Assembly (NCBI GenBank): GCA_964187785.1
Contig: OZ076409.1
Location: 7,256,001-7,320,000, forward strand
Source of the DNA: Amphiscolops sp. MND2022
Lineage: Eukaryota
Direction of reading: 5' to 3'
DNA length: 64,000 nucleotides
The position numbers and the translations under genes were made by a program. Positions 31,424 through 56,095 of the stretch are shown here, one piece after another; the stretch's first letter is position 1; every line of letters starts with the position of its first letter. Below the pieces are notes generated by a model. It was given only the letters and a program-made list of their open reading frames with translations, was not told the origin of the DNA and ran no database searches.

Positions 31424-33938
31424 CTGCACAGAAAAAAAAATTTTTACTAACGTCAATGCAAAATTTAGAAAGCCCCAAGTTTGAAGCCAGGCAGGGATAC
31501 GTTTACAAAAAACATTTGATGGAAATCAAATTATGTTCAGTGTTTTTAGTCGGCGCCTTTTCCTTTTAAGGAAAAATGCCCGACTATAGCAGTGACCTTT
31601 TTTTTCTTCAGACTACAATCCTCACACTGATCGGTCCACTTTTTATTTAGGCCAAGTCCGGCCGATGCAAACTTAGTCCAAAGGGTCCCCTCTTTCATTT
31701 TTTACTTTTTCAAGGAAACCTACAAAACCGGACGTACCTAAAGGTCCCCCCTTTGAATTTTTCCGGCTCTGTGCAATTTTTTATCGAAAATTTTTTAGTG
31801 TCCCCAATGGGTCCACCCTTCGAGTTTTTTGATATTTTGCATCAAAATTTATGTTAAAAAATCCAAAAGTGTCCCTCTTCTACATTTTTCGACACTATGC
31901 GACATTTTTCGAAAGAAAAAATTTCATAAATTTCAAATTTTTTTCCCAATAAAAATGTTTTGCGCTTTTTGAGCCTCAAATATAGCGCCGACTTTAGACG
32001 TTCTCGTGTTGTTTTCTGAAAATCTTTCGGCAACCAGCACCAATGGAGAAAAAGAAGGAATTTTAAGATTAACCACTGGCGATGAGGTCATGTATGTGTT
32101 CAGCAAGTTAGCAGTTCCTAAGTTACAAGGTGCCAATTTTGCAAACTTTTGCATACAACAGGTTTGAAACTATAATGGTTCAATTTAAAACAAGCCGGAA
32201 ACGGCTCAAATCGGACTTCTTAAAGATGCAAGTTAAATGCAAACATCAAACGAGACGGGAACGTCTAAAAACCGCGCTATATCGAAGGCTCAAAAAGCGC
32301 AAAGTTTTTAAAATTGTAAAAAGGGGGACCCTTTGGGTTTTTTGGAAGTCCAGTCTGTTGCAAAGCATCAAAAAATTTGAAGGGGGACCCCTTGGAGGCA
32401 GAAAAAAGACGAAAAAAAGTCCCACAGTGCCGGAAAAAAATTCAAAGAGGGGACCCTATAGTCTCGTCCGGTTTTGTATCTTACGTTAAAATGGAATAAA
32501 TGAAAGGGGGGCCTTTTTTGGTTGCGTTTCTGGTTGCCGGTCCAGTAGTTTAGTAGTTCTGTAACAAGTGTCCACTACGCATACATTCTGTTGCATAGTC
32601 ACTGTAATAGTCGGGCTTTTTTCAAAAGAAAACACGCCGACTAAAAACACCCCAATTGATGAAAAAAGTTGTTAAAATCGTACAGTGCCTAAAAACCTTA
32701 CGATGGGACGTTTGAAGCTTGAAAAACCTCTTTTTGGAAGTTGAAACACAAGAAAAACGGAACGAAGAACATGCTGTGAAATAGATTTTTTCGGAGATCC
32801 TTTGACACGCCAAGGGTTTGAAAACAAATATATTTAGTGCTAGGCAAACATCGAACCAACGTCAGTCTGCTTAGGAAGCGCCCACCCTAACTGTCTGGCG
32901 GCGTGAACAAAAACTCCGTAAAGTGGACCATTCGCATAGACATTAGGTGGTCTTACGAATAAAACTAATCACTGCAATAATCAGGTCCGTTTCCTTATGA
33001 AATGCGCCGACTACAAAATATATCCAGTATTTTGACGTTATATTTAGATTTTATCACTATAATTTGGTTGCATCCGGAAACAGGTTTTCGGTAGTTTATT
33101 TCGGAAACACAACCACATTTGAGACGTTTTGAACCTGCGTCTCTCGGCTTTTTACTTCAACGCTTTAACAACTAGGCCATCGATTCGCAGATCTGGTGCG
33201 GAATCCAAAATAACTCTGAAAAAAATGTGTCACTGTGAAAGTCTCGCTCGTTGCAAAAAAGTAGTTTTCAAAAGCGTCAACTGAAGCGTAGACTGATAGT
33301 AAAAAAATACTACCAAGAACACCAGTACCAGTTAGATTTTTTTGAAATTTGTACCTTTAAAAAAAGTTCCAATTGTTACATCGGAAAGGTCCATTGGTCT
33401 ACTTGCTGTACGTAGGATGTACACCAATGCGTTGTCACCGCATTATGTTCGATTTCCATTGGTCCACTGTTGAGAATTCGATGGGACATAACTGGGTTAT
33501 TAGTAAAAATAAATGGGATTCGTATTTTTGATAGCAATCATTAAAAATGCAAATATTCTAGGGGAAACGCACTGAAACAAGTTTTTTGATTAAATTTTCT
33601 AGCGTGTACAGAGAAAAATGCACCAGACAAAAGCGCCACCCAAACTTGCTTTGCGAGCAGACTTTGCGCACCTCTTACTAAACCTAATTGAACATGTTTA
33701 ATGAATCAAAAACCCACTGGTAAGGTCAGGTTTGACATTTTGTAACTTAACAAGCTAGTTTTGGCATTTGAGAACAAAATAATTTCTTAATGAAGAAATT
33801 TGTCAATCCGTTGTTTCAACAGGAAAAACTGAATAATGTTCAATAAGAGTGAGAATTTTGATGGGGGTGAAGAATTGGCAATTACCCAGTCGGCTTTGAT
33901 TGGCGACTTCAGACTTTAGCGGTCTTGACTGGTGGGCT

Positions 33939-35895
33939 CAGGCGTTGCCAAAAATTGATTCGACAGATTCCATTGCCAATTTTTTACAATCAATTAATTG
34001 ATTTTTGGTTTTTTACAATTACAATTGATTGATTGAACGTTAGCCAAATAATTGCAATGTATTTGTGTGAAATTTATAGGCTATAAATTTCTGCTGGGGA
34101 ATTCCCAAACAGCCGAAGTACCAAACAGCAGAAAATGAAAAATTGGTCTCAAACAGCAGAATATTTCTTTATGTTGAAATCTGATTGGCTGAAATTTGAA
34201 AGCGAATTGAATTCACTAAGCTGAAAACGCGTGTCAAATTTTGTCGGAATTATTATTATAACGTAGTCAGCTATGTTCACATACCCCTAGTGCCCTAAAT
34301 GCAGGAACGAAGCGAAGCGGAGCGACGTGCCATATGGCCATGCCTCAATGTTGCTACTTGGCGAAGGGAGCGAAGCGACCGAGCCATACAAAAAATATGC
34401 AAACGTTTTCAAATAAATCAAAATCCAACATATTGGCTGCAAGAGCACTAAAAGCTAGTATTTTGAATTCGGCTGTATGGGACCAAATTTTCATTTTCTG
34501 CTGTATGAATAGGCACCTTTCTGCTGGCCATCCAGGCGATAATGCTTGTTTAAATGACAGGCATTAACGCGTAAACAAAGAATGAAAGCGTCAACGCGTG
34601 AACAAATACGAGTCTGTATTCGAAATTTCAAACGATGCGGTCAGGGATGAAAATAATTCACGCTGATTGTCACTGTTTGTGATTGGGACATTTTGTGAAA
34701 ACAACGTAGTGCTTTCCATAGAAACTGCAGCGGAAATTTCACAGCGTGAATTAATTCCAACTCTAGCTGCGGCGTATACCACTACATCGGCTCTGCTGGC
34801 TTGCTCTAGATTCCATGTCGTCGGCTAAAAATCTTTGCTGTGGATATTCCAAATTAGAAACGAAAAAGATCACAAATGGACTTACCACTGCGGAAAAAGT
34901 TTCCCAGAAACAAATTCATGGGTAGACAATGCTATTAAATGACATCAAACCTCAGCATGGAGGCGACTGTTGAAAACCAGACGCGTGTGAATTTCGAGAG
35001 AATGGGTAGAATTGATCGAAAGGCTAACAACATATACAGTTGGGTTAACTGGATTTGCACTTCGTTAAAACCATTCAGCCTTGTAGAAGGGAGACGCCTT
35101 GACACGCCTATGTACAAACCTGGAACCAAATTCTGTCAATTTGCTCGAAAAATACATGGACGTTATCACGGAAGAGGTCAAGGGTCAAATAAGAAAACTG
35201 TTACCCTCAAAGTTTGCAATTTGTTTGGATGGCTGGACAAAGAAACCTACATATTTCATAGGAACTTTGCGGCGTTTTAATTCGAGAGCAATAAATATGA
35301 AACAGCGTTGCTTGCGTTCGCCCCATTCTTGAAGAAAACTAATTTCACTGCCAAAGATCATAATGACCTATTACTTTGGTTTCTTGATCTTTACAGTAAA
35401 AACTTCGTGAATATAAAAGCAATTATTGGGGACAACGCGGAGATGAACAAGGCGTTTGGGAAATATTTTAACAAACCACTTATTGGTTGCGCGTCGCATA
35501 GGTTCAAACTGAGTCACTGAAATTACCATTGGTGAATCAAACTCAATCAAGTCCCTGCTCGGACAAAAATGTTGCTATTAGAATTCTAAAACGCCGGAAA
35601 CTTGAAACGCCAAAGAATGAGTCGCAATATTTGTGTACCAAATTCTTCTTGCCAACCTCTAATCTAGTCGAAAGATTTTTTAGATTTTCTGGATATGTCT
35701 CAGACAGGCGCTGAATCCTTCAAATTCGGAATCGCAGTTGTTCCTCAAATTGATCAAAAAGTACTAGGACAAAAAACTAGTTTGTCGTGCAATTAATTTC
35801 AATTAATATTTTTTGGCCCAGTTAATTGATTTATCGTTATATATAATTGCAATTAAATTATTTTTCGTTGCGCACATAATTTTTGATAACCCCTG
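33939..35895 (+). mobile_element. Decayed hAT DNA transposon (partial mirror at 1-1099)
   Basis: Imperfect TIRs CAGGCGTTGCCAAAAAT / ATTTTTGATAACCCCTG; 8-bp TSD GGTGGGCT/GGTGTGCT (7/8); internal transposase fragments. Confidence 0.85.
34860..35770 (+). pseudogene. Frameshifted, internally deleted hAT transposase
   Basis: Fragments across frames: NIYSWVNWI...PFSLVE, FAICLDGWT, AIIGDN, PLIGCASHRF (CxxH) and PTSNLVERFF (start of the C-terminal dimerisation domain). Confidence 0.85.
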
Positions 35896-38038: not shown

Positions 38039-38798
38039 AACAAGACGGGAACGTCTAAAGTGGGCGCTATATCTAAGGCTCAAGAAAGCGCTAAGTTTTT
38101 AAACTTGTAAAAGGGGGGACCCTTTCAGCTTTTTGAAAATCCAGTCTGTTGCAAAATATCAAAAAAATTGAATGAGACAATAAAAAAATTCGGAAATTTT
38201 TTTGAAAAAACTTTCGAAAAAACGAAAAATGAGAAATTTGGAACAGTCTCACAGTACCGAAAACTAGAGAGGGGGGACCCTTTGGGCTTTTTGAAACTTC
38301 AGTTTGCTGCAAAATATCAAAAAACTTGAAGGGGAACCGTTTGGCGACAAAAGAAAAATTTGAAAATTTTTTGAAAAAAATTCAAAAAAACGAAAAATGA
38401 GAATTTTGAAAGTCTCACAGTGCCGAAAAACTAGAAAGGAGGGACCCTTTGGGCTTTTTGAAACTTCAGTTTGCTGCAAAATATCAAAAAACTTGAAGGG
38501 GGGACCGTTTGGCGACAAAAGAAAATTCGAAAAAAAAGTCGCACAGTGCCGAAAAAAATTCAAAGGGGGGACCCTGTAGTCCCGTCCGGCTTTGTATCTT
38601 ACGTTAAAAATTGAGTACACGAAAGGGGGGACCCTTTGCAGTAACTCAGATGTGGTTCCGCTTGCCGGTTCAGTACTTTTAGTAGTTCTGTAAAAAGTGT
38701 CCACTACGCATACATTCTGTGGTCTGCGAAAAAAAAAGAAAAAAAAACTTGCCACTGTCATAGTCGGGCTCATTTTGATAAAATGCGCCGACTAAAAA
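38039..38798 (-). mobile_element. Helentron-like family A copy with internally repeated ~175 bp unit
   Basis: AACAAGACGGGAACGTCTAAAG...GCGCCGACTAAAAA. Confidence 0.75.
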
Positions 38799-39182
38799 TG
38801 GGAATATGATCTAACGGGAATAAGATCTTAAATTTCAAGACGGGGATAAGATCTAAAGCGAAAAAGATCTAAAATCACTAAAATTTAGATCTTATTCTTT
38901 AGATCCTATTCCCCCCTCCCAAAATAGATATGGCTCAGTTGCTGAAGGCGAAAAGGGCGGAAAATATCCCGGTGCTTAGCCTTATGCCGGTGATCTTATT
39001 TTCTCTGTAATAGTGAAGTTTCAAAATCTGATTGTACTGAGATTGACAGGACAGTTTAGCCATGCTTTATCATAAAATTCCTGCTCGCCACCTGGGAAGT
39101 TAGATATTGAAAGACACAGTAGCTTAGACTGATGATAATTTATGGAAAAAAGAGGAGACAATTTACATCTAAAATGGCTTAT

Positions 39183-39864
39183 TGTGAGAACTCTGACCTA
39201 GGGTCTCTCTTAGATCTCCTACAGATCGTGAATCCTTCTTTGCAATTTTTATTTTAGGCCCAGATACGCTTTCCCTGTTTTCCTGGCTATTCGGGGACGA
39301 ACTGGCCTCAGTGTCCCTGTGCCCAGCAGAGGACATTGAACTAGCAATGTTTTGGATTTCTGGAATGACTCTTTCATTTATAGCTGTTGTGACGGCTCTA
39401 TTTATTTGATTATGCATCATTGACATCATAGAATCCATTTCTTGAGACAATCTGAGATTAAACTCATTCGAGAAGGTTTCAAAGGAGTGTCTGATTTCAT
39501 TTTGTCTCAGTACATCATTTTCATGCTGATAATCTCTATATTCATTCTCTAGGTACGTGTGTGTATCAGCGTCCCCATGGGCCGACGACTGATCTATAGC
39601 TTCAGCTAATTCTCTTTCTATGGGATTATTATTGTTATTTCCCAGCATCACATCTAAGTTTTCAAAGTCGGACATCATGTCCATTTCCCTAGATTTTCTA
39701 GCTTTCGCTTTCTGGCGTCTAGTAGAAGGCATAAGAGATTATTGCAAGAGGTAAGAATTTAAATTAAGTTCTCAGGCTTGCAAATTCAGTGTGAGATTAC
39801 TAAGTATCAAGTAACAAGCATGTAGTAAGGTCAAACTTCTTGTTCCCCGGACTAAATGTCTCCG

Positions 39865-39906
<42 letters not shown>

Positions 39907-40716
39907 CAAACTACATGACACGCATAATATTGATCATCATATTCTAATAATAGCCTTAAGGGCTTTCTAAAAATAGCAACAGTTCTAAACCTAGTAACGG
40001 TTAACTAGTGACATCATCATACATCAAAAGGCCTTTCCCAACAGTTATTGTGGCGGGAAGACTGAAGGTCCATGCGGACAAGCAACGCCACATGTATGAA
40101 CGCAATAAACTACATGTATTTCAACATTTTCTAATTGCATGAAATATATCAAAGGCATTGATGGTGTACTATTAAACACAGATTACATGTCCTCTAAGGA
40201 CTAATAATTCACTAAATAAGACAATAAAGCACCGGTTATTATGCAATTCATAACACTTTCCAGCAAGCGCTTTTGATTTGATAAACGGCCTCAGCGTCCA
40301 ACCGACATGAGTGGACCGAGATATTATTGACTGGCGGCATATGGCCGTTCAGTCCCTTTAATCTAGCAGCATAATACAGCGCCGAATAAAGAAAGTACTG
40401 CACTGTGATTGGTTAGCGAGTTAATTGGACTGGTAGACCAAGGCGACAGGCGAGAAAACATTTGAACGCGTTTCCTCTACCTGTACGCCTTGGTGTCCAA
40501 TTTACTAGCAATGTACAAATTAGCGCCGGTATTACGTAATACTAAATCATCATTACATGATATTTTATATTCAGAATAACTAAATTACATGACTTTTGAG
40601 ATACAAATGCAGTTCATTTAAAAAGTTTCAATTTAAATGGATCGTGTTGGGTAAAGCTTTTTGATAGTTGTGGCAAATAGAGTACAAGTTGCCATCACAG
40701 GCGGACGCCTGGGACA
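39183..40716 (-). repeat. 3' LTR (1534 bp)
   Basis: About 10 substitutions relative to the 5' LTR counted by eye, plus (TA)20 versus (TA)8. Confidence 0.93.
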
Positions 40717-41463
40717 CTCCCCCTGGGATTAGCATGAAGCAGCCCACCTTCATTCCTTCTAAGAACGCCATTCTCCTGGCATTGAATTGTTCTGGGGACT
40801 CCCCTCGGACAGCCGTCTTGTGCATGTAGTCAATCACTGCTTCATCTTGAATCTGTTCTACAGATTTTCCGCAGATGAGGCAGTCTGCGCAGCCCGTGAT
40901 GTAGGGATTGTCGTCGCTAGGGCCTTTAAAGTGTATTCCACTTGGGCATTGTTGTTTATTACTAGTAGAGGGTTCTACCATTGCCCTCCAGTCGCCTGTA
41001 GGGTATTTATCCACAGCAGGGGGCGACATTGGTGTGTCCACCATTGGAATTAATTGGCTGCAAATATTAATCGGATGATCATTTTTGAGCCTTGGGTCCC
41101 TTGCGACTGGCCCTCTCCCCATCCCTAGATCAAAGTATCCAGCATCGAACATTGGTCCAGGGATGTATGAGAGCCTGGGGTCCCGGGACGATCTTCTCTC
41201 TGTTGGTTTGAACAGGAGGGCACCGGAATGCTTTCTGAGGCTAATAGGAGTTCCATTTGTCTTTCTACGCATTCCGCCAGTAAAGCCACTTCATCATCGT
41301 CGGACAGAGATTCTAGGTCGTCTACTGAAACGCTGCTCGCACATTCCATTTCATCATCACTGGATATGCAAATTATTCCGTCTCCCGGGGCTGCACCCTG
41401 AAAGTCTTCAGGGAAGTACTCGGGGGACTCTGAGTTGAAATGGCTTGATAGGAATTTGTCCAT
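40628..41463 (-). CDS. Extra sense ORF3 of the Gypsy element (~280 aa, split by a frameshift), unknown function
   Basis: Overlapping ORFs 41125-41463 and 40628-41272; acidic N-terminus, IICISSDDE, RDPRL twice, CADCLIC. Confidence 0.6.
40717..40724 (-). promoter_or_regulatory. Polypurine tract AGGGGGAG
   Basis: Directly precedes the TG of the 3' LTR on the minus strand. Confidence 0.8.
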
Positions 41464-42746
41464 AATTATATCTTTGCAATTTTCGGAGAGATTTCTTTTG
41501 AGAAGTTTTTTGAGTTTTATTTCAAATAGCCAACTGGTTGTTGTGAATGATTGTGGAACAATGGCGGTCTTCCCTTCCGTCGACTAGCGGGAGTTTTCGT
41601 CTCAGTTTCCCGGGGTTTTGCGTCTCCTAAGAAGGATAAATTTTCAACAACAAATTCCATCTTGGTAATATCTTTCATCTATCCGTCTTGCCTTCTTTGA
41701 TAACGCCGACAACGGCCTTGTTGGCTTACATCAGTTTTGCCAACACCTCCATATTAAGAGTGCCGCTTCAAGTGTTTATTAACACTCATCGAGCACTTAA
41801 AGGTTTCAAGAGGGTAAGCTATGGCAGTCAGCCACGCCGTCCCCCAGCAATCTTGATTAGCCAATAGGAATGGAGCATGTTTCTTTCTGAATAAAAATGG
41901 CTCCCCAAGGTCGTAAATCCATATAAGGACTAATGTAAAATGACCTTGAAATTAATGAAATCTTGGAAAATCATGAAATAATTTGTAAAATGGTACATTT
42001 TTGAAATAAATAAGTAATTGTAGATATCGCTGGCAGACTCCATCCACATAACACTGTAAAATGTAAATAATACCAAATTTGACACCAAACTGTATAGCCA
42101 CGAACTCCAATTTCGACACTTTGTCACATTGCCAATTCAGCTTTCAATTCTTTTACATTCGAATTCTTCTCTAGTTACTTTTTCTGTATTATCGCCAGTA
42201 TTTAATCATCTTTAGTCTTTTAGTCTTTGCGTCGTATTTATTTCCATTTCATTTGAAGTTTCCTTTTGTAATTTCTCTTTGTTATAACACCTCTGGATTT
42301 CTCGGGACAATCTAGGACAATCGACACTGAGTCCCTTTTGGCAAATTCACCCATATTCAACATTCTCTCCCTCTTTCAAAGAAGAATCTGCTTCTCTTGC
42401 CCAGCTGCTGCTGTGCAACCACTACTTCTGGTCCAAAATACTTCTCCTCGGCAGCCCGACTTCCAGGATTAACCATTCACCCGGCATCCGCAGTCTGCAC
42501 ACAGAACTTTTCTCCTTCAATTTAGTCCACACAGGTCAGTAGCGTCTCGAAGGGTTTTCATTTCTATCTTTGGTATTGAACTAATTTGAGGCTTGATCAG
42601 GGCTCTCATTTCATTCACGTACTTCCTGTCCCATAACTCAAGCATTCACTTGAGTTCAAATATCTACTTCCGGAAGATTTTTTAATGCGGCAATGGACTC
42701 TTTTTCAGGAAGTTCTCCGCTTGATTTTATCTCTTTCTATTTAGAC

Positions 42747-45700
42747 ATGTCGTCCGAGGAGCACAATGAAATCATTCCCGCTACCGCTACTGGGACTTTA
42801 ACAGAAGAAGAAGTTCCACAACAGCCCGAAGAAACAGTCGTCGACCAGACCGCCACTGCCATAAAGGACGCGGAGTCCAAGCAGCCTGATCCGCCGAAAG
42901 ACAGCTCATCTAAGACTGGTCCAACTTCCAGCGCTTCCACCGATGAGAGTATTTCAGCATACATTGAGCGTCAGTTGCAGAATCTAGGTTGTCAGGATAC
43001 TGGACTGGTCATCTCTTTCTTGCCACCCACTACATCTGCCGTCGTAAGCCATGCACCTGAGTCCAATACAGAGAAGGTTTCCGAGTCGGAGCCAATTCCC
43101 CAGGTCACGACTGGGTCACGAGACAAGGAGTCACCTGAGACTGAGATTGAACGGGGCAATGATGCCGTCAGCGAAGCTGGATTTTCCGTCACCAAGGCGG
43201 ATTACTTCCAAACAGATACCAGCGACGCTGAAGAACTGCTTGATAGTTCAGGTGCTGAGACCATCAAGGAACCTCCGTTCTTGATTGCACTGGATGCGCT
43301 AAGCTCCACTGGGACCGAAATCCATGAGAAGGCTAAACCATCAACCTCGGCTGAATTACCAAACATATCTTCCCCGAAGCTCTTTAGTCCCACCAGGCCT
43401 CTATCTGCCTCTGCTCGAACGCTCATAAATCAGCATTTCAATGAGACCAATCCGAGCATCCTCCCGGTAGGCCATGCGACTGTGGCCTTCAGTCAGGGGC
43501 AAGTTCATTCCATCTTGCGCGCCGTCTCCACAGAAACCATTACTTCTTCTCTACACCAGATGAAGAACATACTGGAAGAAGCGATCCGGGTGGGAATTCG
43601 CTCCCAAGGTACTCCTCAAGGATCCGGGAAACAGCGAATCAAGATCTTCCGTAAGCAGAGCGGCAGCCCTGGATCAGGTGCGGAAGACAGTGACGTTGGG
43701 ACTGAGGGGTACACTAGCGGAGCCCTCAGTTCGGAAGATGAGTTTGTCATCAATTCCCAAAGAACTGGCAAGGATCTGAACATCAATCCCCCTCCAAGCC
43801 CTCCAGATCAAAGTTCGACTTCAACGCCTGGACCATCATCTGCACAACAAGTCCCTAGTCCAGGATTCTGCTCAACCGACTATGAGCCCTTAGCCTCATT
43901 GACCACTGATCAAGCTTCCGCCTCAAGTCCACCTCGCAAACGTCGTCGGCTTCCTGGACGCACAGGCAAAATAATGAAAGAGGCCTATTTCAAAGGAATC
44001 CAGTGGACTCGCACATTCGTCACCGGCCCCCTCGACCCAGAGCACAATAAACATAAGTTCTACTGCCAAATATGCAAGACGAACGTTTCTATTTTTTCAA
44101 AAGGAGCCCGGGAGATCGTCCGCCATTTCCAGTGTGAGTCGCATTTCCGCAAGGATCAGCGCTGGAGATACGAACACTTAAAGAAGAAAGACAAGGTGAC
44201 TGGCCGGATTGTCCACGAAGTCAGAGGGAAGAAGGGCCAATTGCTGACTCCCTTAGAACTTGAGAGAGAGAAGCCCTTCTTCATGCAAGTTCCCTTGGTT
44301 GAAACTGGCAGCAGCAACCCCTTCTACGAGGATCACATGGCTGGCCTGGGCTCCATCGCTGGGCAGGAGGAGATCAGACTGTGCGTCCAAATCTCCATGG
44401 TTGCTCTCTTCACTCCTCGTTGTGGAGATCTAAACGTCCTTGAGTCGCTATGGTCACAGATTGGCACTGTAACCAACCATCAGAGTCTGTTCTCTCCTTA
44501 CGATTGGGGCTCCTCCAAACTGACAGTAAGTATTGGCGACTTCTAGCCTCAGGGTCCTTTAGCCCTAACGCAGCCTCGATGCATTTTCATCCTAGTTAAT
44601 TTTGTTTTAGACGATCTTTCATCACATCTTCCTCTGTGGTATCGCTGACATCGCGTACCAAGTCAGTGTCACGGGTCAGTACTCTCTGGAGTTTGAGATG
44701 CGAGGCACCTACAGCTTTGTTTCGATCCGATTCTGGAAGGGCGAATCCCTCAATGTCGTCCGCTTGCTACGATACCGGACTGCTTCAGAACCTGCTGCTG
44801 GTTTCCTGTTGGTACTTTCCCGTCTCTTGTCCGTCCTATCAACACAACCTCAGATTGTGAGCGTGTCTGGGTGTCCTGCAGAGGTGATTCCTCTTCTTGA
44901 ACGTTCTTGCCTCTTCCAAAAAGGGATTGAGTACCCCTTTCGATTTGATGCACTTTGTCTACCGGACTTGATGCACGAACGATGGGGCAGCGTGTTTGGC
45001 ACCATCAGTTTCTTCTCTCAGCTGAAGTTTCTGGTTGCGTTCTTGGACGGTTGCAGTGGACAGCCATGGGCCGCCCTAATGCCAGAATTCGTTAAGGTAA
45101 GGTCACTGTCCGTAAGACTGTAGGTCCAGCTTTGGATTGCTTCCAATGAACATGTTGATTGTAGGCCATGTCTACCTATCACCTGGAAATTGCCGCTGTG
45201 CCAGCCATATGTTCGGAACTGATTGCGAACTGGAAGTCTGTGCACCAGCACTTGACAAAGATTGCACCACCACAGGTCCACCAGGGGGTCAAAGGCAAGC
45301 CCCAAAGCCTCGAGTGGGAAATCATAGCTGATGATTTCTTCACCATCAAGCTGGAGTTCTTCGCACGAATTGTCCGCGATTGTTAGTATATTGGTCTTTT
45401 CCTCCTGTCCACGGACCTCATGGTCTCGGTTTCTCTTACCACTATTTGAGGCTCATGCGAGATATAGTAGATTGGCACGTTAGGTCTAATGGTGTCATAG
45501 GGACCCTTTAGGATGGTAATATTTTGTTTTCCAGACACCAAGAGCTTCGAGAGCCAGTTTGCACAGCGAAGGGATAGTGGCTTCTACACCTTCCGAGAGT
45601 TCCATACTTTCATCCGCAAGTTGGCAGGTCGAGCACTACTTCCCACACACGTGCCTGATATACTGGACGGAAGTCGCTGGGCGATTTGCAAGGACAGAAT

Positions 45701-46683
45701 TGGCGACAACTGTCTAATCGAGATTTCTTGAGTCGCTTGAAGCTCAAAGAAAATTTGGATGCCGCATGCCATGCTCGCGTCAAGAGAATTTATAGTGAGA
45801 AGCAACTGACACCTGAAGAGACGGAAACAGCAGCTGAGGCCATTCGGGACGATTTCGCCACTAAGGCCCGAGGTTACCTCGTCCATCTTTTGAAAGTCTT
45901 CCTTGCCGACATTAGCCTGAATGCTGGTATCGTAAGAGGCCTGGGCAGTTTCGATCCAGTAGCCCTCCTGAGTCTGCCGCTTGAGCAAGCCACATATTGT
46001 TTCTCCGCTCTGTACCGATCCTTTAGTTTGCGAGGCTGGTTAGAGAATTCCCCAGAGGCCGATGCCCGAGACGAGTACGTCGATTTCGTGGAGTACTTCC
46101 GTCAAGCCAACTCTGGAGTCAAGGATACCCCAGAGGTCTTCACCGACATGGTAGCCTTTCTGATTGGCATGCCTGAATTGAAGTTGCGGAAACATCTGTT
46201 CTACATTTTCCAGTTGAGTTGTCTGTGCCTGACTTCTAAGTTGCCAGAGCTCCCAGCCATCAAATTCCCTGGAGTTGATTGCAATGATCCCCGAAGTAGG
46301 CTTTTCGATGTCATCATGCCTGCACAGTCTTACCTAGCTAATGTGGCAAAGTCAGTGGCTGTGTGCACTACAGAAGCTTCCCTGGGTACATTCAAAGATC
46401 TGGAATTCCGATTCAGTACTGGCAACGTCCCAGGAGACCCTTGGACGCACGTAGACAGTTTCGGCAAAGCTAATCTGCATAAAACCTTAATTGCAGTTTA
46501 CAAAGCTCTGGGCAGGAGTGTCCGTCCTGACATCGAGTCCGCTTCCAATTCCTCGTCTAAAGAAGTGGGGAAACAACGTACGCTGTCCCCGGTAAAGGCA
46601 AGAAGGTTGGCTTTCGGGTAGCTAGTGAGACTGAAGCCACAAAGTCCAGTAATGGGAACGCTCCCGGAACTTCTAAATCTTAA
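42747..46683 (+). CDS. Antisense spliced accessory gene inside the Gypsy element; exons 42747-44525, 44611-45096, 45165-45381, 45535-46683; ~1,200 aa zinc-finger protein with two 1-nt frameshifts in the last exon
   Basis: GTAAGT, GTAAGG and GTTAGT donors with TTTTAG, TGTAG and TTCCAG acceptors join the ORFs in matching phases (0, 0, 1). NLS-like PPRKRRR; finger CQICKTNVSIFSKGAREIVRHFQCESH. Confidence 0.8.
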
Positions 46684-46918
46684 ATGTACAAAGAGTACAT
46701 TTGTTTCTAGACTGTACTTGTTGTAAACTGCTTTATATTTATTTCATCTGTTTGTTGTTTTGTTTGGGCGTGGCTTTGTATTATTCGCCACTAAGTCTTC
46801 TTTATTGTACATAATTATTTCGAGTAACAAAATAAGTCAGAAAGTCCCAAGTAAAAGATAAATGTCCTCATCGACCAATAGTCGAAATAAAGAGGGGACT
46901 AGTAATTCAAGTTTCTGG

Positions 46919-47901
46919 CTAGTATCTGTATTCATCAGTAAAGTTGGGGTTGGGGTTAGGTCGAAGGTTATATCTCCCTCCTCTAGGGCTAGAGTTTTCT
47001 TCAAAGCTTTCTTTTTCCGATATTCCGGGCACGGTAATATCTGCGCCTCTGTTTGAAACGCCTTCCGTATTTTTGAAATCATTAGTGACGTCATTTTCAT
47101 TGTCGTTCTCATATGGCGTTTCGTTCAGCGGGGACGATTCGTTACTGTTATTCTTCTTTGTTGGCCATATTTCATTCTCGGTGACGTCATCCTCGTTAAT
47201 TCGTTCGGAGCAGCTTTCATTTTCGCTTGCGCTGCTGCGTTCGTTTTCAATGACGTAATGGTCCGCACTGCCGTCCTCAGTGTCGGTCGGCCGGCGTGTG
47301 GCCACGTCGGTCCAATCTTCCTTTCTCGGTTCAAAGAAGTCGTACTCAAAATCCACTTCCCATGAGATGGAATACAAGTCGTCTTGTGGTATTACTATCT
47401 CATTGTCGGGCTGTAATTTTTCACCTTCATATTTGTCCTCTAAGGGGGCATTTGGTACGAATTTCTTTAATCTAATGCGATGTAGTATTTGTGTTTTATT
47501 AGTATTTAATCGACGCACAATATAATTGTCATTGGACAGTACTGTCTGAACGACAAAGGGGCCAATCCACCTGTATTCCCTGAATGGGATCTTTGATGCT
47601 TGACTGTCCGCTTTAGGTTGTAGAACAAAACAATAATCGTTTTCTTTAAGCGGAGCCGCTTTGGCCTTTCGGTCGTAGTAGTCCTTATACTTTAGGTAGG
47701 ACTGCGTTATGTTCTTTTTGGTCTGATCAATGAGGATTTGTGTCCGCTGTTGCACTTCTTCCGCAAAGTCTGTAGTTGGCATGAAATTTTTATTGGGATT
47801 GTTCCCCATTTTATGATCTAGGACGTTAAAAGGAATTCGGCCATGAAAGACTTTACTCGGTTCACATCCAATACTGGAGTGATATGTGGTATTATAGTTG
47901 A
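46919..47901 (-). pseudogene. Duplicated integrase C-terminus including the true pol end (acidic tail, ...RGGRYNLRPNP...)
   Basis: 47424-47901 repeats 48455-48932 and continues to a stop at 46919. Confidence 0.85.
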
Positions 47902-48445
47902 TTGCAATGATCCCCGAAGTAGGCTTTTCGATGTCATCATGCCTGCACAGTCTTACCTAGCTAATGTGGCAAATTCAGTGGCTGTGTGCACTACAGAAGC
48001 TTCCCTGGGTACATTCAAAGATCTGGAATTCCAATTCAGTACTGGCAACGTCCCAGGAGACCCTTGGACGCACGTAGACAGTTTCGGCAAAGCTAATCTG
48101 CATAAAACCTTAATTGCAGTTTACAAGGCTCTGGGCAGGAGTGTCCGTCCTGACATCGAGTCCGCTTCGAATTCCTCGTCTAAAGAAGTGGGGAAACAAC
48201 GTAAGCTGTCCCCGGGTAAAGGCAAGAAGGTTGGCTTTCGGGTAGCTAGTGAGACTGAAGCCACAAAGTCCAGTAATGTGAACGCTCCCGGAACTTCTAA
48301 ATCTTAAATGTACAAAGAGTACATTTGTTTCTAGACTGTACTTGTTGTAAACTGCTTTATATTTATTTCATCTGTTTGTTGTTTTGTTTGGGCGTGGCTT
48401 TGTATTATTCGCCACTAAGTCTTCTTTATTGTACATAATTATTTC
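47896..48445 (+). repeat. Duplicate of the antisense gene's 3' end (46273-46821)
   Basis: Near-identical sequence; retains the un-frameshifted C-terminus ...SPGKGKKVGFRVASETEATKSSNVNAPGTSKS*. Confidence 0.9.
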
Positions 48446-51400
48446 TAATATAATCCTTCATATTTGTCCTCTAAGGGGGCATTTGGTACGAATTTCTTTA
48501 TTCTAATGCGATGTAGTATTTGTGTTTTATTAGTATTTAATCGACGCACAATATAATTGTCATTGGACAGTACTGTCTGAACGACAAAGGGGCCAATCCA
48601 CCTGTATTCCCTGAATGGGATCTTTGATGCTTGACTGTCCGCTTTAGGTTGTAGAACAAAACAATAATCGTTTTCTTTAAGCGGAGCCGCTTTGGCCTTT
48701 CGGTCGTAGTAGTCCTTACACTTTAGGTAGGACTGCATTATGTTCTTTTTGGTCTGATCAATGAGGATTTGTGTCCGCTGTTGCACTTCTTCCGCAAAGT
48801 CTGTAGTTGGCATGAAATTTTTATTGGGATTGTTCCCCAATTTATGATCTAGGACGTTAAAAGGAATTCGGCCATGAAAGACTTTACTCGGTTCACATCC
48901 AATACTGGAGTGATATGTGGTATTATAGTTGAGTACTGCTAATGGCAGGTATTTATGCCATTGGCGTCGATACTCTCCTGAGGCCATTTTCAAATTGGTT
49001 TTGAGTGAGGCATGCGTCCTTTCCAGCTTGCCGATTGTTTGCGGGTGCTTTGTAGTTGCGCATTTGAGTGTTATGCCCAAAATTTGAGTTATCTCAGCTA
49101 TGATGGTCGATGTAAATGCGGACCCCTTGTCTGTGATTAGAGTTGTTGGCAAATATGAGTGTTTCGTCATTATGTCAATAATCACCTTGGCTACATTCGT
49201 GGCTGTTGCCTCAATTAGCGGGTAGGCGAATAGGTATCTTGAAAAGATATCAATAGCTGTCATCACTGTCTGGTATCCTCCACTAGTCGGTAGATTTGGT
49301 AGTAAGTCGATCTGCATGGCGTCTTCGGGACCTAGGTCCCACTCGGGCAAATTTAACAATTCTGGCGTGATTGTATTGTTAGGGACTCTTTTGTCTCTGG
49401 CACACGTCTCACAGCCTTCTACCCATTTTTTAACATGTTTGGCTATCCCAGGGTAGTAGTATTTTTGGCGAATTTCTTGTAACATTTTGGATATGCCCGG
49501 GTGTTTATGGGCCGTGCCATGTATTGCTTGCAGTAATTCTTTTAACAAGTGTTTGGGCAGTAATATCTGGTGGTGTTTAATTTGGCCTGTTTCGTCATAG
49601 TATTTCCTTGTGATAATTTCGTCTTTGAGGACTATTCGGTCTAGATTGTTCAAATAATGTCTATACCTAAGGTCCTGTTGGAGGATCTCCTCAGAGTATT
49701 CTTCATTCTGAATTTTTGCCTTTAATTGAAGTAATATCGGGTCTTTGGATTGCTCTAGCAGTATTTGATTAGTTCTACGGAGCTTCTGGGTGAAATTAGT
49801 AATTTCTTCGACGATATTTTCGGATATGGCATCAATTTGGATGACAGTCCTCGGGACTTTGAGTCCTGCTTTTGATTGTCGTTTTCGTTCCCAGATTTGT
49901 TCTTCCGTTTCATTATCTTCCTCAGTAAAGAACACTTGTTCCTCTTCGGACACACCGGCCGACTGCACGTTGACTTCAATAGGCTGTGTTTCAACGTCTG
50001 CACGAATTTTCAAAACTAACTTTTCGGTCGGTTCCATTTCCATACGGGACAAGTAGTCTGCCGCTGTATTATTCTTGCCTGGAATGTGGGCTATTATAAA
50101 GTTGAACTGGATGACGAAATCACAGGCATTCCATTATGGCGGCGGTATGATCTTGGTCTGGAAGAACCTTGTGACCGATTTGTTGTCTGTAAGGATAATT
50201 ACCGGTTTAGGTGTCCCCCAGAATATATGTCCGAATTCTTTAAATGCGAAATATATAGCGAGAAATTCTTTCGCATATATCGACATTTTGAGTTGGGAAG
50301 GAATAAAAGTTTTCGAGCCATAAGCAATAGGTGCATAGGATTTCTTGACTGAGGTGAATTTCTGGTTTGGATCGTCTTCAGTGAGTATAGCGTATCCTGC
50401 TGCTGTAAAACTGGCATCTGTCATCAGGACTAGCTGTCGATTCGGCAGTGGTTGCCTCAAGGCTAATTGGCTACACCGGTCCAGGTCTCTATTGATTTCG
50501 TTGAATTGTTCGATTAGCTCTGATGTGACTAAGACCTTCTCGTTCTTCTCAAGTAGTTGAAAGAAGGGAACCAATTTTTCTGATAGTCTCGGTATGTAGT
50601 TTCTGTAATAATTGAGGAATCCGAGGTATCTTTGCAAGGCTTTTTTGGATTTCGGGAATTTAGTTTTTTGTAGGAAGTTTGTGATACTTTCCTTTTGAGG
50701 CTTGACGCCCTCTGGGGTGATTGTTCTTCCCAGAAAGTCAATTTCTGTTGCGCCAAAATGACATTTGTGCCTTGTGAGTTTTAATACAGCCTCTCTTATG
50801 CATTCAAATGTGGCTCGGAGGTTTTTGATCAAATGTTCGGCATCATTTGCTGCTATGCCAATGTCGTCGACATATTGCGCACATTGGTCTGCCTTGATAA
50901 CGCGGTCCAAGTATTCCCTCATGGAGCTAGAGAAAGCCGACAGGGCTCTACTGAGTCCTTGGGCCAATCGTCTGTAAGCGAAAGTTCTGCTGGCAAAGTT
51001 GAAGGCCAGCATTTCAATAGACCTTTGGTCTGCCATTTGGAGGCAGTGGTACGCCTGTGAGCAATCAAGTTTGCAAAAAAGTTTCTTCCCGGCCATGTGT
51101 TGCGCAGCGTCCGTCAAGGTACTAACTGGGTGGTTGTTATTATTATAATCATCAGAAATCAACTTATTGATCTTCCTGAGGTCTACTAATAATCGTAGCT
51201 TCCCATTAGGCTTCTTTTGCGCGAAAATAGGACTGGCATATTTTGAGAACGGTAAAGTAGTTATAATACCGTATTTGTGGAGTAATGCCAGCTCAACTAG
51301 GATATCCTCTTTTAAATTTATCGGAGTCGGTAAGCTCTGGCTGTATGCGGGTGAGTCGTCCTTCGGGGTCAGTTTGACCGTGAACTCCTCGTTCATCCCA

Positions 51401-53052
51401 ATATCAAATCTATGACGTGCAAATATGTCATGAAATTCCACTAAGAGAGCTTCTATTTGTTTGATTTCATGCTGTTGTAGCATTGAGTCTTTCCAATCAA
51501 AATTACTGAGGAATTTTTGCCGAGATTCTTCATTTTCTTGAGGATTGAGGCTTTCTGCCTCTTGCAAATTTCGTAATTCTCTGAGTATTCGTTTTTGTAT
51601 TGGCGTGTGGGACGCTTCGTCCCCCGGGTTCTCAGGAGTTGGGAACCAATATTGTTCATATTGGTCGTTGTTCCTGTTGGCTTTCAGAAGGCTGCTAATA
51701 TATTGAACAGCATCTTCTTCATTTTCATTGAGGAGGTGCCATGTGGACACTGGGTCTATTGGCCTGACGTGTTTCATCTGCTCCGGCGTCATTACTGAGA
51801 AGTTGGCTATATGCATCCCCTTTTTGAGTTTGTAGGGTTGGTCAGTAAAATTATTAATGTGTATCCTCGTGGTCCCTTCATCGAGTGTAATTATGGCAGC
51901 GCAGAAGGTTATATCATTTTCTTCATTTAGATGTTCACTGGGCTGTAAAATCCCAGTGACAGCATTTTCTGCGTAAATTCTGGATTGAATGGAGATGATT
52001 GTACGGTCATTTGGCGGAATTGTGACATCCTCAGGGTTGAGGATGGGCTCCATGACGTTCGAGTATTTGTGGTCAGCCGTTTTCAATTGCATCGAGAAAA
52101 AGGGGAAGTTGAGTATGCCTTGGCGCATATCTAGGACTGTGTGATTTCTTTGTAAGAACATAAGTCCATTTATGGGGCTGGATAGTTTTTCCATCACAAT
52201 GAAGATCTCATGGAACTCAATGTCCCCTACTTCAAATTTCAATTCCACTGTGCTTTTGGGAGTCTCTAGGTCACCATTTGCGACCATGATTTGGAAAGAT
52301 GGGGCAGGTCCCTCTTTGACTATGGATTGAGGCGCTAATAGCCGTATTTTCCTGAGGTCTGCTTCTGGGATTGCGCTGGAGTGGGCCCCAGTGTCTATGA
52401 GTCCATCTAACGTTAGTTCTCCAAAGTCCATTGGAAAATATAACATCCGCCTTTTAATTTTAAGTCCAAGATAAGTGGAAAGAGGAACGTATGATGGTTC
52501 ACCTTGTTGTTCCACTAAAATATGCAAGAAGGCTGTTTCATCCAGAAGGCTATTGAGGTCTTGGTGATCTTCTTGCTCTGGAGTTTCCCCTATTTCTCCT
52601 GAGAGTACTTCAGAATTTGGTTGCCAAAGTTCAATGAGGGCCCTAGAGAGTTTGGTGTCCTCTATTTGGGGATCGTCCTCATCGTCTGTTGGGGGATAAT
52701 CTTCGTTCCGGAATTGGAGATTTCGTTTGTCATATAATTCATCATCCCAATACGGATCTTTGCCATACTCAGCGTCAATGTATTGAGGGTGGTAGTCTTC
52801 GACCAATGGTAAGGGACGGAATTGAGTCTCAAAGTCTTTAGTGTAGTCAGTTTCGTAAAATCGGTCTGGGCGATCGTTGTGTACTTGTTTATAGGTTTTG
52901 ATGCAGGCTTTCTCCATCTGTTGCTGCCAGACGACGGATGGGGTGCCTGTGGTATCCTTTATATAGTGTCGGAATGTTATAATTGGAGGGTCTGAAATGA
53001 CATACTGTCGAACCGACATATAGTCATGTATTTGGAGTCGTGGCAAAATTAG
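48445..53052 (-). pseudogene. pol: Pol (protease, dUTPase-like segment, RT, RNase H, integrase) with one in-frame TAA at 50136-50134
   Basis: Motifs LIDTGA; YVDD; TDAS/KEFLA/TDNK; HGTAHKHPG..CETC; QIDL/TDKG/LERTH; GPFVV. ORFs 50134-53046 and 48445-50052 are in the same frame. Confidence 0.93.
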
Positions 53053-54737
53053 TTTTTTGGATCTGTCTTTTTGATATTGGATTGGCTTGAGCTGGTGGTC
53101 GTCGTGTCACCTGGTGTTTTAGGTTTGCTTTCTGAAGTTGAGGCATTTGGATCTTTTTGCTCCGCTTGTAACCTCTTGGGACGCAGGTGGGCACCTGCGC
53201 CTTGCCAACATTTTTCAGTTGAATGGTTCTTTTTCCCGCATGTGTCACAAGGTGGGTAAGTAGGACGCTGTGGTTTTTTGCCATCTTTTTCCTCCATTTC
53301 TTTCTTTTTCTTGAGTTTAGGACAGCTTTTGTAAAAATGTCCGGTTGCCTTACAATAGGAGCATTGAGCGTCTTTGTTGGTGTTGATGCCGGTAGAGAGC
53401 AAGTTGCTTTGGTTTGTTGACGCCGAGGCCATAGTGGCCATTGGCAAGTCATCGGACTCTTCTAATGCATTAAGTTCTAGCTCTCTTTCAAGATGAGCGA
53501 CTATTTCTTCATACGTCCCGTTCTCCAACCGGGCCATGTTGACAGATCGTTTTAATTTTGGTGGAAGTTTCGCGTATAACAAACTGTCAATCATGCTTTT
53601 TGCATTTTTACCAAAAAATTTTTCAGCTCCTTGGTTCAGTTCTTCCAAGAAGTCCGGCAATTTCATGGTACTTGGGTCGAACGTCAGTCGATGCCATTTG
53701 TGTTTTGCCGTCGCTTGGGATTCCGGTTTAAGGTACTTTCTCCGGAATATGACCAGTACGTCTTCCAGAGTCTGACGGTTGATGGAGTTTATGTTCCTAA
53801 ATGTCTGTAATGCCCCTTTTCGTAGCAATGAATGGAAATGGTTGATTTTCATCTGTTCTGTCATTGCAGGTTGCATTTTGATCATCGTGTGGAACAAGTC
53901 CTCAAAAACCTCGAATTTTTCGCCTTTTCCGTCAAACGTCATTGGAGTTGTTTGGACAGGTCTGATGGTCATAGTTTGTGGTTTATTTTGCAAATTGACT
54001 AATACATCAGCCAATCTGTTGAACGGGTCCTGCTGTGGCTCTGGGACCTCGGGGTCTGGGGCTGGCAGAGTCGCGTCTAGAGAGACATTGTGGTTGGAAT
54101 GTTGCCTCTGGAGGTTCGGGATTGAGTGGATTCGTCCAGTCAGGAATTCAGGAATTTGCTGTTGGGTGTCAATAGCTCCTGTCACCATGTGAGAACTCTG
54201 ACCTAGGGTCTCTCTTAGATCTCCTAAAGATCGTGAATACTTCTTTGCAATTTTTATTTTAGGCCCAGACACGCTTTCCCTGTTTTCCTGGCTATTCGGG
54301 GACGAACTGGCCTCAGTGTCCCTGTGCCCAGCAGAGGACATGGAACTAGCAATGTTTTGGATTTCTGGAATGACTCTTTCATTTATAGCTGTTGTGACGG
54401 CTCTATTTATTTGATTATGCATCATTGACATCATAGAATCCATTTCTTGAGACAATCTGAGATTAAACTCATTCGAGAAGGTTTCAAAGGAGTGTCTGAT
54501 TTCATTTTGTCTCAGTACATCATTTTCATGCTGATAATCTCTATATTCATTCTCTAGGTACGTGTGTGTATCAGCGTCCCCATGGGCCGACGACTGATCT
54601 ATAGCTTCAGCTAATTCTCTTTCTATGGGATTATTATTGTTATTTCCCAGCATCACATCTAAGTTTTCAAAGTCGGACATCATGTCCATTTCCCTAGATT
54701 TTCTAGCCTTCGCTTTCTGGCGTCTAGTAGAAGGCAT
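53049..54737 (-). CDS. gag: Gag, 562 aa, two CCHC zinc knuckles
   Basis: Capsid-like region FDGKGEKFEVFED...KINHFHSLL; knuckles CSYCKATGHFYKSC and CDTCGKKNHSTEKC. Confidence 0.93.
   Translation of the reverse strand: MPSTRRQKAKARKSREMDMMSDFENLDVMLGNNNNNPIERELAEAIDQSSAHGDADTHTYLENEYRDYQHENDVLRQNEIRHSFETFSNEFNLRLSQEMDSMMSMMHNQINRAVTTAINERVIPEIQNIASSMSSAGHRDTEASSSPNSQENRESVSGPKIKIAKKYSRSLGDLRETLGQSSHMVTGAIDTQQQIPEFLTGRIHSIPNLQRQHSNHNVSLDATLPAPDPEVPEPQQDPFNRLADVLVNLQNKPQTMTIRPVQTTPMTFDGKGEKFEVFEDLFHTMIKMQPAMTEQMKINHFHSLLRKGALQTFRNINSINRQTLEDVLVIFRRKYLKPESQATAKHKWHRLTFDPSTMKLPDFLEELNQGAEKFFGKNAKSMIDSLLYAKLPPKLKRSVNMARLENGTYEEIVAHLERELELNALEESDDLPMATMASASTNQSNLLSTGINTNKDAQCSYCKATGHFYKSCPKLKKKKEMEEKDGKKPQRPTYPPCDTCGKKNHSTEKCWQGAGAHLRPKRLQAEQKDPNASTSESKPKTPGDTTTTSSSQSNIKKTDPKN
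53052..53058 (-). promoter_or_regulatory. -1 ribosomal frameshift slippery heptamer A AAA AAC
   Basis: Immediately before the gag TAA; pol is in the -1 frame. Confidence 0.8.
54176..54187 (-). promoter_or_regulatory. Primer-binding site TGGTGACAGGAG
   Basis: Starts with TGG immediately after the LTR's terminal CA; resembles the complement of a tRNA-Leu 3' end (tRNA identity is inference). Confidence 0.8.
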
Positions 54738-55697
54738 AAGAGATTATTGCAAGAGGTAAGAATTTAAATTAAGTTCTCAGGCTTGCAAATTCAGTGTGAG
54801 ATTACTCAGTATTAAGTAACAAGCATGTAGTAAGGTCAAACTTCTTGTTCCCCGGACTAAATGTCTCCGCTATATATATATATATAACAAACTACATGAC
54901 ACGCATACTATTGATCATCATATTCTAATAATAGCCTTAAGGGCTTTCTAAAAATAGCAACAGTTCTAAACATAGTAACGGTTAACTAGTGACATCATCA
55001 TACATCAAAAGGCCTTTCCCAACAGTTATTGTGGCGGGAAGACTGAAGGTCCATGCGGACAAGCAACGCCACATGTATGAACGCAATAAACTACATGTAT
55101 TTCAACATTTTCTAATTGCATGAAATATATCAAAGGCATTGATGGTGTACTATTAAACACAGATTACATGTCCTCTAAGGACTAATAATTCACTAAATAA
55201 GACAATAAAGCACCGGTTATTATGCAATTCATAACACTTTCCAGCAAGCGCTTTTGATTTGATAAACGGCCTCAGCGTCCAACCGACATGAGTGGACCGA
55301 GATATTATTGACTGGCGGCATATGGCCGTTCAGTCCCTTTAATCTAACAGCATAATACAGCGCCGAATAAAGAAAGTACTGCACTGTGATTGGTTAGCGA
55401 GTTAATTGGACTGGTAGACCAAGGCGACAGGCGAGAAAACATTTGAACGCGTTTCCTCTACCTGTACGCCTTGGTGTCCAATTTACTAGCAATGTACAAA
55501 TTAGCGCCGGTATTACGTAATACTAAATCATCATTACATGATATTTTATATTCAGAATAACTAAATTACATGACTTTTGAGATACAAATGCAGTTCATTT
55601 AAAAAGTTTCAATTTAAATGGATCGTGTTGGGTAAAGCTTTTTGATAGTTGTGGCAAATAGAGTACAAGTTGCCATCACAGGCGGACGCCTGGGACA
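54188..55697 (-). repeat. 5' LTR (1510 bp)
   Basis: Direct repeat of 39183-40716; minus strand reads TGTCCC...CTCACA; contains (TA)8. Confidence 0.93.
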
Positions 55698-56095
55698 CTT
55701 ATGAATGGAACAATTTCACATATAGAGTGATATCTAAAAACTACACCTGTTCACAAGTTTAAAAAAAGCAAAACCGATTGAGCATTAGGACGATTAACGA
55801 AAGCGAAGCAAAATTGAGACATGAAATGTTATTTTTGATATGAAATTAACTCACTGGAAATCTTCTGGTGCTTCTTGTTGGGAAATCGAAAATCCAAAGT
55901 CCGTCTAAACAATCAGAAAAGACTTCGAAAAGGAAAAATTTGCCTGGCATTGCATTGGCAGTATTTTCTTTAAACAACAAATGTTTGAAAGTTTGATGTA
56001 TTTCGTATATTCAACGATATAAATGATAAGTGAAACAACTAAAATAAATCTAAAATGGGGATGATTGACAGAACTTATGAATTACATACAGTTGA

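Follow-up and report, generated by a model that had tools for sequence, protein, structure and literature searches.

An intron-containing antisense gene carried by a Ty3/Gypsy retrotransposon family of Amphiscolops sp. MND2022

Why would a Ty3/Gypsy retrotransposon carry an intron-containing gene on the strand opposite gag and pol, and does such a gene belong to the element? The question was raised by a 64,000-nt stretch of DNA from Amphiscolops sp. MND2022 (assembly GCA_964187785.1, contig OZ076409.1, positions 7,256,001–7,320,000 of the forward strand), which is called the window here and within which all positions are counted. A 16.5-kb element on the minus strand occupied 39183–55697 of the window, and a plus-strand gene composed of four exons was located between its integrase region and its 3' long terminal repeat (LTR), tail-to-tail with pol (Table 1). 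This antisense gene is very probably an integral accessory gene that is maintained by selection.

Linkage, splicing, and selection of the antisense gene

The element was bounded by a 5-bp target-site duplication, and both LTRs had TG..CA ends. Direct repeats and pairwise alignment gave 10 mismatches in 1510 aligned bases and one 24-base indel between the LTRs, and the element was called young because of this high identity. The pol domains were ordered by Pfam as protease, reverse transcriptase (RT), RNase H, and integrase. The open reading frame (ORF) 50134–53106 contained Asp_protease_2 (residues 226–315), RVT_1 (residues 631–796), and RT_RNaseH (residues 888–985), and the ORF 48445–50133 contained Integrase_H2C2 and rve. 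At the inner LTR edges, read on the minus strand, a primer-binding-site-like sequence, TGGTGACAGGA, followed the 5' LTR and a purine run preceded the 3' LTR. By its LTRs, duplication, pol order, primer-binding-site-like sequence, and polypurine tract, the element is a Ty3/Gypsy LTR retrotransposon. A first-pass annotation, made from the window sequence alone, had described a minus-strand LTR element bounded by a target-site duplication, and this description agreed with the TG..CA ends and with the CTTAT on both sides.

When the genome was searched at the DNA level with positions 42600–46700 as the query, 36 of 2105 first-look candidates were scored, which yielded 39 gene matches at 93–100% identity. 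Thirty loci were fetched, comprising the window copy and 29 others. The same integrase sequence abutted the 3' end of the gene in all 30 loci; 24 were collinear with the window over 41100–47901, and the other six had deletions or rearrangements. The reverse search with pol gave 40 places. In 25 of them a scored gene match was located on the side where it was expected, at less than 9 kb, and in one further place a gene match was 9.6 kb away. Two of the remaining 14 places (L039 and L040), picked for the lack of a scored gene match near their pol, were also fetched, and the gene was present in both with internal deletions of ~1.25 kb and ~0.63 kb, respectively. The gene was present at the same position in all 32 copies examined. 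The deletions in L039 and L040 corresponded to window positions 43374–44622 and 44125–44755, respectively, and pol of these copies was 99% identical to that of the window. Such copies fit an action of the product in trans, or dispensability of the gene.

The same arrangement was found in diverged families. L031 and L032, fetched loci from two diverged element families of which neither copy was fully intact, each had the antisense gene tail-to-tail with a Gypsy integrase. When the diverged families were compared with the window, pol was 76–84% identical and the antisense protein 29–46% identical, and one of the two diverged copies also contained the sense extra ORF, ORF3, together with an LTR-borne gag start upstream. 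Because the diverged families share this arrangement, the layout of gag, pol, antisense gene, and ORF3 was considered ancestral to a clade of elements. The copies support the gene as an integral, inherited part of the Gypsy element and not a one-off insertion.

The exon borders were located at 44525/44611, 45096/45165, and 45381/45535, all with GT..AG, and the stop codon at 46681–46683; these borders, between pol and the 3' LTR, had been placed identically in the first-pass annotation. None of the 30 copies had lost the GT or the AG of any of the three introns. Junction 1 was confirmed by P0120, a 47% identical relative in which a single ORF was collinear from exon 1 into exon 2, and junction 3 by the ORFs of P0154, P0224, and P0169, which were collinear from exon 3 into exon 4. 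Intron 2 was located at the matching place in the diverged L032. The start is more likely to be ATG 42693 than ATG 42747, which had been proposed earlier, because the motif MDxFxGSxPxxFIxFxL downstream of the former is kept in relatives 47–60% identical.

An open spliced frame of 1,227–1,229 codons was found in 12 of the 30 copies, and the intact product comprised 1,228 residues. The proposal that the exons join in phase was correct for these 12 copies and failed for the window copy, from which it had been made: exon 4 of the window had lost a single base at two points, after 45668 and after 46590, and both bases were present in all 29 others. The reading from exon 3 into exon 4 stopped after residue 910 because of these losses, and the window's own gene copy is unable to make the protein. 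Taken with the relatives, the gene appears to be largely real as a spliced, protein-coding gene.

Selection was estimated as Nei-Gojobori ratios of nonsynonymous to synonymous divergence (dN/dS) on the 12 open copies (66 pairs). The median dN/dS was 0.16, with a range of 0.09–0.89. The corresponding ratio of pooled proportions of differences (pN/pS) was 0.25 in the disordered half of the protein and 0.13 in the remainder, and that of the integrase C-terminus in the same copies was 0.24. These ratios support purifying selection on the antisense gene, and the intact frames with dN/dS below 1 that the first-pass annotation had proposed to look for were found.

The encoded protein and the hAT transposase question

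The N-terminal 430 residues of the protein contained 42% Ser, Thr, Pro, and Glu, and the basic motif PPRKRRR was located at residue 413, which corroborated the S/T/P/E-rich N-terminus and motif reported before. A single finger, C-x2-C-x16-H-x5-H, was located at residues 458–484; its middle spacing had previously been given as x17. No terminal inverted repeats were found around the gene, as had also been noted, and only imperfect pairs of 12–21 nt at chance level were present.

Relatives of the protein were numerous. The finger region of exon 1 had 148 relatives at 47–99% identity (expect value, E, ≤ 0.001 among 707 candidates), and those listed were all from ENA, with neither a name nor a Pfam domain. 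The search with exon 4 gave 403 clusters at 50% identity, of which 67 had E ≤ 1e-30, with identity down to 29%, and exon 2 gave 28 related proteins. The relatives found were exon-sized ORFs; no full-length relative was scored among proteins of 1,093–3,120 residues, which is weak evidence by the search tool's own caveat. Within the same genome, the diverged C-terminal domain was scored in 105 of 7559 candidates, all of which matched and 92 of which were stop-free. A total of 176 listed relatives had no Pfam domain or source name, and the protein is treated as a member of a large orphan family.

The first-pass annotation had suggested that the protein originated from a hAT-like transposase. As a full reading, an ancestral Gypsy element would have captured a DNA transposase of the hAT type, from which the protein descends with its catalytic activity lost, with a BED-like N-terminal finger, exon 2 as the first half of the RNase H-like core, and exon 4 as the helical insertion and C-terminal region. 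The folded region of ~740 residues is comparable in size with the 597–697-codon hAT frames of the genome. By eye, the single N-terminal C-x2-C...H...H finger after W-x2-F resembles that of hAT-derived ZBED, CGGBP1, FAM200, and GTF2IRD2-like proteins, whereas no hAT dimerization domain was present in the Amphiscolops gene and the likeness had no Pfam, profile-profile, or fold support. When the region from the finger to exon 2 was compared with the ESM Atlas by language-model features, the nearest named clusters were CGGBP1-like, zf-BED, zf-C2H2_12/SPIN-DOC, and FAM200-ZBED5_RNase-like, all of which are hAT-type N-terminal pieces, and nine of the ten best family-assigned matches shared a clan. 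However, the scores of 0.82–0.86 were below the 0.9 bar under which matches count as leads only by the tool's standard. Exon 4 matched unnamed clusters only (0.90, low recognition) in the same comparison.

The domain searches did not support a hAT origin. No Pfam family was above threshold in eight window pieces and 12 relatives (E up to 1) or in three finger segments (E up to 10), and the finger reached at best 16.7–21.5 bits against a cut-off of 27, as sub-threshold C2H2 or zinc-ribbon fragments only. Neither zf-BED nor zf-C2H2_12 was found at E up to 10 in the three finger segments or at E up to 1 in the 20 longer pieces. The hAT dimerization domain (PF05699) was absent from exon 4 and the other scanned pieces, yet it had 150 matches elsewhere in the genome, and no other transposase family was found by Pfam. 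The same scans of gene pieces and relatives contained no bZIP family. When two family profiles were compared with five intact hAT transposases (597–697 codons) cut from the same genome, hhalign gave a probability of 0.3% (E 0.21) for profile A2 and of 0.15% (E 0.4) for profile A1, against a shallow profile of five sequences only. PDB sequence profiles were likewise empty of support: Taq polymerase for A1 (E 0.9 or worse) and TBP for A2 (E 0.1, over the disordered part) were rejected as chance.

The AlphaFold2 model of the C-terminal domain, built with the family alignment, consisted entirely of helices, with a mean predicted local distance difference test (pLDDT) of 73.4 and a core of 84–97. 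The model of P0120 contained the finger (pLDDT 80–96), one small domain of helices within its N-terminal half, and, in exon 2, a β-β-β-α-β-α stretch at residues 676–749 (pLDDT 56–79), with the model stopping mid-domain. This is the order of strands and helices that opens an RNase H-like fold, and it speaks for the hAT reading. When the models were compared with the PDB by Foldseek, the best E was 0.63 for the C-terminal model and 0.019 for the P0120 model, and the latter was rejected as insignificant at the threshold of E ≤ 0.001. Matches to Tdp2, EndoMS, NurA, and RNase HI (E 0.02–0.1) had template-modeling scores by query of ≤0.09 and were rejected; no transposase was among the matches listed. 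A VIA comparison with 48,161 chains gave nothing above noise, and the best E among the BFVD viral structures was 0.022. The structural comparison suggested in the first-pass annotation gave no significant fold match, which is not a negative result because the exon 2 model is of middling quality and incomplete. The hAT origin was left with a sub-threshold language-model lead and with the exon 2 stretch. With no terminal inverted repeats on the gene and no family or profile support, capture of a hAT-type transposase is an unlikely origin.

The element and the remainder of the window

Table 1. Positions of the Gypsy element, its antisense gene, and associated features in the window
Feature	Position	Strand	Basis or remark
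Target-site duplication CTTAT, left	39178–39182		Identical 5 bases outside both LTRs
3' LTR, 1534 bp, TG..CA; holds copy of first ~185 gag codons	39183–40716	-	Repeats/alignment; ORF 39169–39738
Polypurine tract adjoining 3' LTR	40717–40729	-	Read from sequence
ORF3, sense extra ORF, ~278 codons; crosses polypurine tract into 3' LTR	40628–41463	-	
1.2-kb stretch from which ORF3 and the antisense gene start in opposite directions; putative internal promoter region	41464–42692		Geometry
Exon 1, 611 codons: S/T/P/E-rich half, PPRKRRR (43929–43949), C2H2 finger (44064–44144)	42693–44525	+	
Intron 1, 85 nt, GT..AG	44526–44610	+	Junction collinear with intron-less relative P0120
Exon 2, 162 codons, predicted β-β-β-α-β-α stretch	44611–45096	+	
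Intron 2, 68 nt, GT..AG	45097–45164	+	Same position in diverged L032
Exon 3, 217 nt, phase 1 at its end	45165–45381	+	
Intron 3, 153 nt, GT..AG	45382–45534	+	Junction collinear with intron-less P0154, P0224, P0169
Exon 4, predicted all-helical C-terminal domain; two one-base deletions in window copy	45535–46683	+	
AATAAA, candidate poly(A) signal of antisense mRNA in 235-bp spacer	46885–46890	+	Read from sequence
Integrase C-terminal part, separated from remaining pol by rearrangement	46919–47901	-	
Private rearrangement	47896–48932		Gene 3'-end copy 47896–48445 and integrase repeat 48455–48932
pol (protease, RT, RNase H, integrase), in-frame stop 50131–50133	48445–53106	-	Pfam, sequence
gag frame with two zinc knuckles, 564 codons from stop to stop; first ~185 codons in 5' LTR	53049–54743	-	
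Primer-binding-site-like sequence starting TGG, adjoining 5' LTR	54170–54187	-	
5' LTR, 1510 bp	54188–55697	-	Alignment
Target-site duplication CTTAT, right	55698–55702		Same bases as left

The window element was damaged at several places besides exon 4. A 1,031-bp rearrangement, composed of a second 3' end of the gene and 478 bp of integrase, was inserted in the integrase gene; it was private to the window copy and absent from the 29 others. The pol frame of the window contained an in-frame stop at which the relatives L031 and L032 read through, and ORF3 was frameshifted. Because of the exon 4 deletions, the rearrangement, the pol stop, and the ORF3 frameshift, the window element is dead, as one member of a family that gives the appearance of recent activity.

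ORF3 was composed of an acidic N-terminal part and a Cys-rich part, and its start was oriented head-to-head with that of the antisense gene. It ran without a break in 22 of the 25 copies that aligned well, was kept in a diverged family (L038, 2673–3498), had a pN/pS of 0.34, and had no Pfam match. The gag start, ~185 codons, was located inside the LTR (54188–54743, minus strand) and was duplicated in the 3' LTR (39169–39738); an LTR-borne homologue was located at 715–1449 of L038 in the diverged family. A weak dUTPase-like match was located between protease and RT at ~51786–52035 (residues 358–440 of the ORF 50134–53106), with E 2.4e-4 and 21.3 bits against a cut-off of 22.

Outside the element, two near-identical, intron-free ORFs of 402 codons from stop to stop (12934–14142 on the minus strand and 21497–22705 on the plus strand) were inverted relative to each other and located ~7 kb apart; they encode an aminomethyltransferase, the glycine-cleavage T protein (Pfam GCV_T, E 2e-79). 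Short plus-strand ORFs at 34939–35332 resembled by eye a hAT-transposase fragment (DGW motif), with no Pfam match. The start of another retroelement at 61118–64000 (plus strand), with long ORFs and a gag-like zinc knuckle, ran off the window and also had no Pfam match. Dispersed repeats of 86–121 nt with a GGGGGACCCTTTGGG-like core flanked the element on both sides (31749–32381, 38085–38497, and 57061–58963), and a run of N, that is, masked or unresolved bases, was located at ~18340–18600. Rfam gave no match over the whole window.

Possible role and relation to known antisense genes

On balance, the stretch is probably an accessory gene of a 'complex' Ty3/Gypsy lineage, whose spliced product would be nuclear and act in trans. 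Only the minus-strand RNA of such an element is reverse-transcribed, and the introns of a gene on the opposite strand stay in the template. The antisense introns are inherited in every new insertion because they are never spliced from the strand that is reverse-transcribed. The gene would be transcribed from its own promoter, located either in the 1.2-kb region where it and ORF3 stand head-to-head or else within the 3' LTR. The transcript would be spliced and then polyadenylated in the 235-bp spacer after the AATAAA at 46885, before the pol stop. The product, in which a disordered half of 430 residues, acidic and S/T/P/E-rich, is joined to an orphan C-terminal region of α/β and all-helical parts, probably enters the nucleus through PPRKRRR and binds nucleic acid or chromatin through its single finger. 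A nuclear, DNA-binding accessory role is plausible from these motifs. Acting in trans on copies of the family, the product might regulate the transcription or chromatin state of the element itself, or shield it from host silencing by antagonism, which is put forward tentatively and at somewhat less than even probability.

The nearest known counterparts were found in plants. According to a review (PMC7264820), the plant Ty3/Gypsy elements Grande of maize (gene23), RIRE2 of rice, Retand of Silene, and PvRetro13 of Phaseolus carry antisense ORFs in the interval from pol to the 3' LTR; most or all members of a family have them, and they show no database similarity and have no assigned function. 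For Grande, the same source reports that an upstream promoter of its own has been shown and that the gene23 product is nuclear, and it separates antisense additional ORFs from transduced genes, which occur in one or few copies. When compared by description with these plant ORFs (aORF-3R in PMC7264820), the Amphiscolops gene shared the place, the orientation, and the presence across family copies, whereas it differed in its animal host, its much larger product (1,228 residues), its four exons, and its C2H2 finger. The animal nature of the host was also borne out by the 1.07-Gb genome, in which the DNA-binding domain of nuclear receptors, a domain confined to metazoans, had at least 21 matches. 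The words 'intron' and 'animal' were absent from the passages of that review considered here. The brtn gene of the Boty-like Gypsy element in Botrytis cinerea is also an antisense coding gene between pol and the 3' LTR, with no function assigned to it there (PMC7264820). A difference lies in its host elements, which are fungal chromoviruses. A search of the full-text literature, outside which subscription journals and Repbase fell, found no animal Gypsy element described as carrying a spliced and conserved protein-coding gene in antisense.

The HBZ gene of HTLV-1 provides a retroviral comparison, in which the mRNA is spliced and the protein is nuclear. PMC3736048 describes HBZ as encoded by an antisense transcript from the 3' LTR and as acting on transcription factors, and the logic of a protein encoded opposite gag-pol near the proviral 3' end is the same. 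The Amphiscolops gene, however, has no bZIP or other domain in common with HBZ, and its element is an LTR retrotransposon with no env. Another animal LTR-retrotransposon accessory protein is CERV of the Gypsy-type element Cer1 in C. elegans, which serves nuclear export of the genomic RNA according to PMC10309623; compared by description, CERV may be nearer to ORF3 than to the antisense gene.

Several observations weigh against the accessory-gene reading. The deletion derivatives with a young pol could signal a dispensable gene. Nuclear import and binding are inferred from a short basic motif and a sub-threshold finger, and the retention of GT-AG among copies 95–99% identical is weak evidence for splicing by itself. 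No intron-less relative was seen for intron 2, unlike junctions 1 and 3. The synonymous divergence of the gene (pooled pS 0.075–0.094; pairwise dS up to 0.15) exceeded the divergence of the non-coding DNA in and around it two to three times: the introns, the intergenic region 41584–42692 (4% between distant copies), and the spacer 46684–46918 diverged by 0.03–0.05. For the integrase C-terminus, pS was half as large (0.044). In the comparison of the two diverged families with each other, dS was 0.51 for RT-RNase H and 0.96 for integrase, and it was saturated for the antisense gene. Strong constraint on the non-coding parts would account for this, or else a history of the element's 3' part that is partly its own, through recombination; on either account, the fast divergence of the protein is not yet to be taken for an arms race. 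CpG decay was rejected as a cause of the high dS, since variability outside CpG was 0.088 in exons and 0.103 in non-coding parts. ADAR-type editing of sense/antisense duplexes was set aside as a cause, with A/G and C/T differences in exons nearly balanced (92 and 110 shared sites, respectively).

The gene might alternatively be a passenger, transduced once from a host or foreign source and of no use to the element. The 99% identity of pol in the copies with internal gene deletions agrees with such an origin, as does the lack of a recognizable tie between the protein and the retrotransposition machinery. However, a useless 4 kb should decay, yet the pN/pS of the gene was below or about that of the integrase C-terminus, and the gene was retained in families whose pol has diverged by 16–24%. 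No related protein of more than 1,092 residues, and hence no full-length annotated host gene, was found, which is weak evidence. A passenger is therefore improbable.

It is more improbable still that the antisense RNA, and not the protein, is what matters, with double-stranded RNA or small RNAs tuning the activity of the element. This possibility is raised for the plant antisense extra ORFs in PMC7264820, and the convergent layout with pol would permit transcript overlap. It would leave unexplained, however, the 1,228-codon frame in 12 of 30 copies, the dN/dS of 0.16, and the conservation down to 29% identity over 403 clusters, although RNA and protein roles are not mutually exclusive. The chance that the gene reflects a single nested insertion by some other mobile element, or an assembly artifact limited to the window, is negligible in spite of the private rearrangement beside the gene, since the genome-wide collection of copies that the first-pass annotation had called for ruled out a one-off insertion, with the gene at the same place in 32 of 32 copies on many chromosomes, no inverted repeats or duplication of its own, and a layout common to diverged families.

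Extra genes are a route from simple LTR elements to virus-like ones, and the antisense ones among them are barely understood. The layout of the Amphiscolops element illustrates how introns are protected against loss in reverse transcription, and annotators are alerted to a large orphan family of proteins (403 clusters). As material, the family is unusually favorable: young copies are many, with the frame open in 12 of 30, purifying selection is strong, diverged relatives number in the hundreds, and natural deletion derivatives exist. It would allow a direct test of the idea that a nuclear regulator or an anti-silencing factor is supplied by the retrotransposon itself. It is possible, if rather doubtful, that these animal Gypsy elements form a clade that is 'complex' in the retroviral sense, with ORF3 and a spliced antisense nuclear zinc-finger protein of a new fold family that is expressed from its own promoter and either controls the chromatin or transcription of the element or disarms host silencing. 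If this is true, invertebrate retrotransposons would have evolved an HBZ-like strategy independently, and it would since have diversified into sequence clusters by the hundred.

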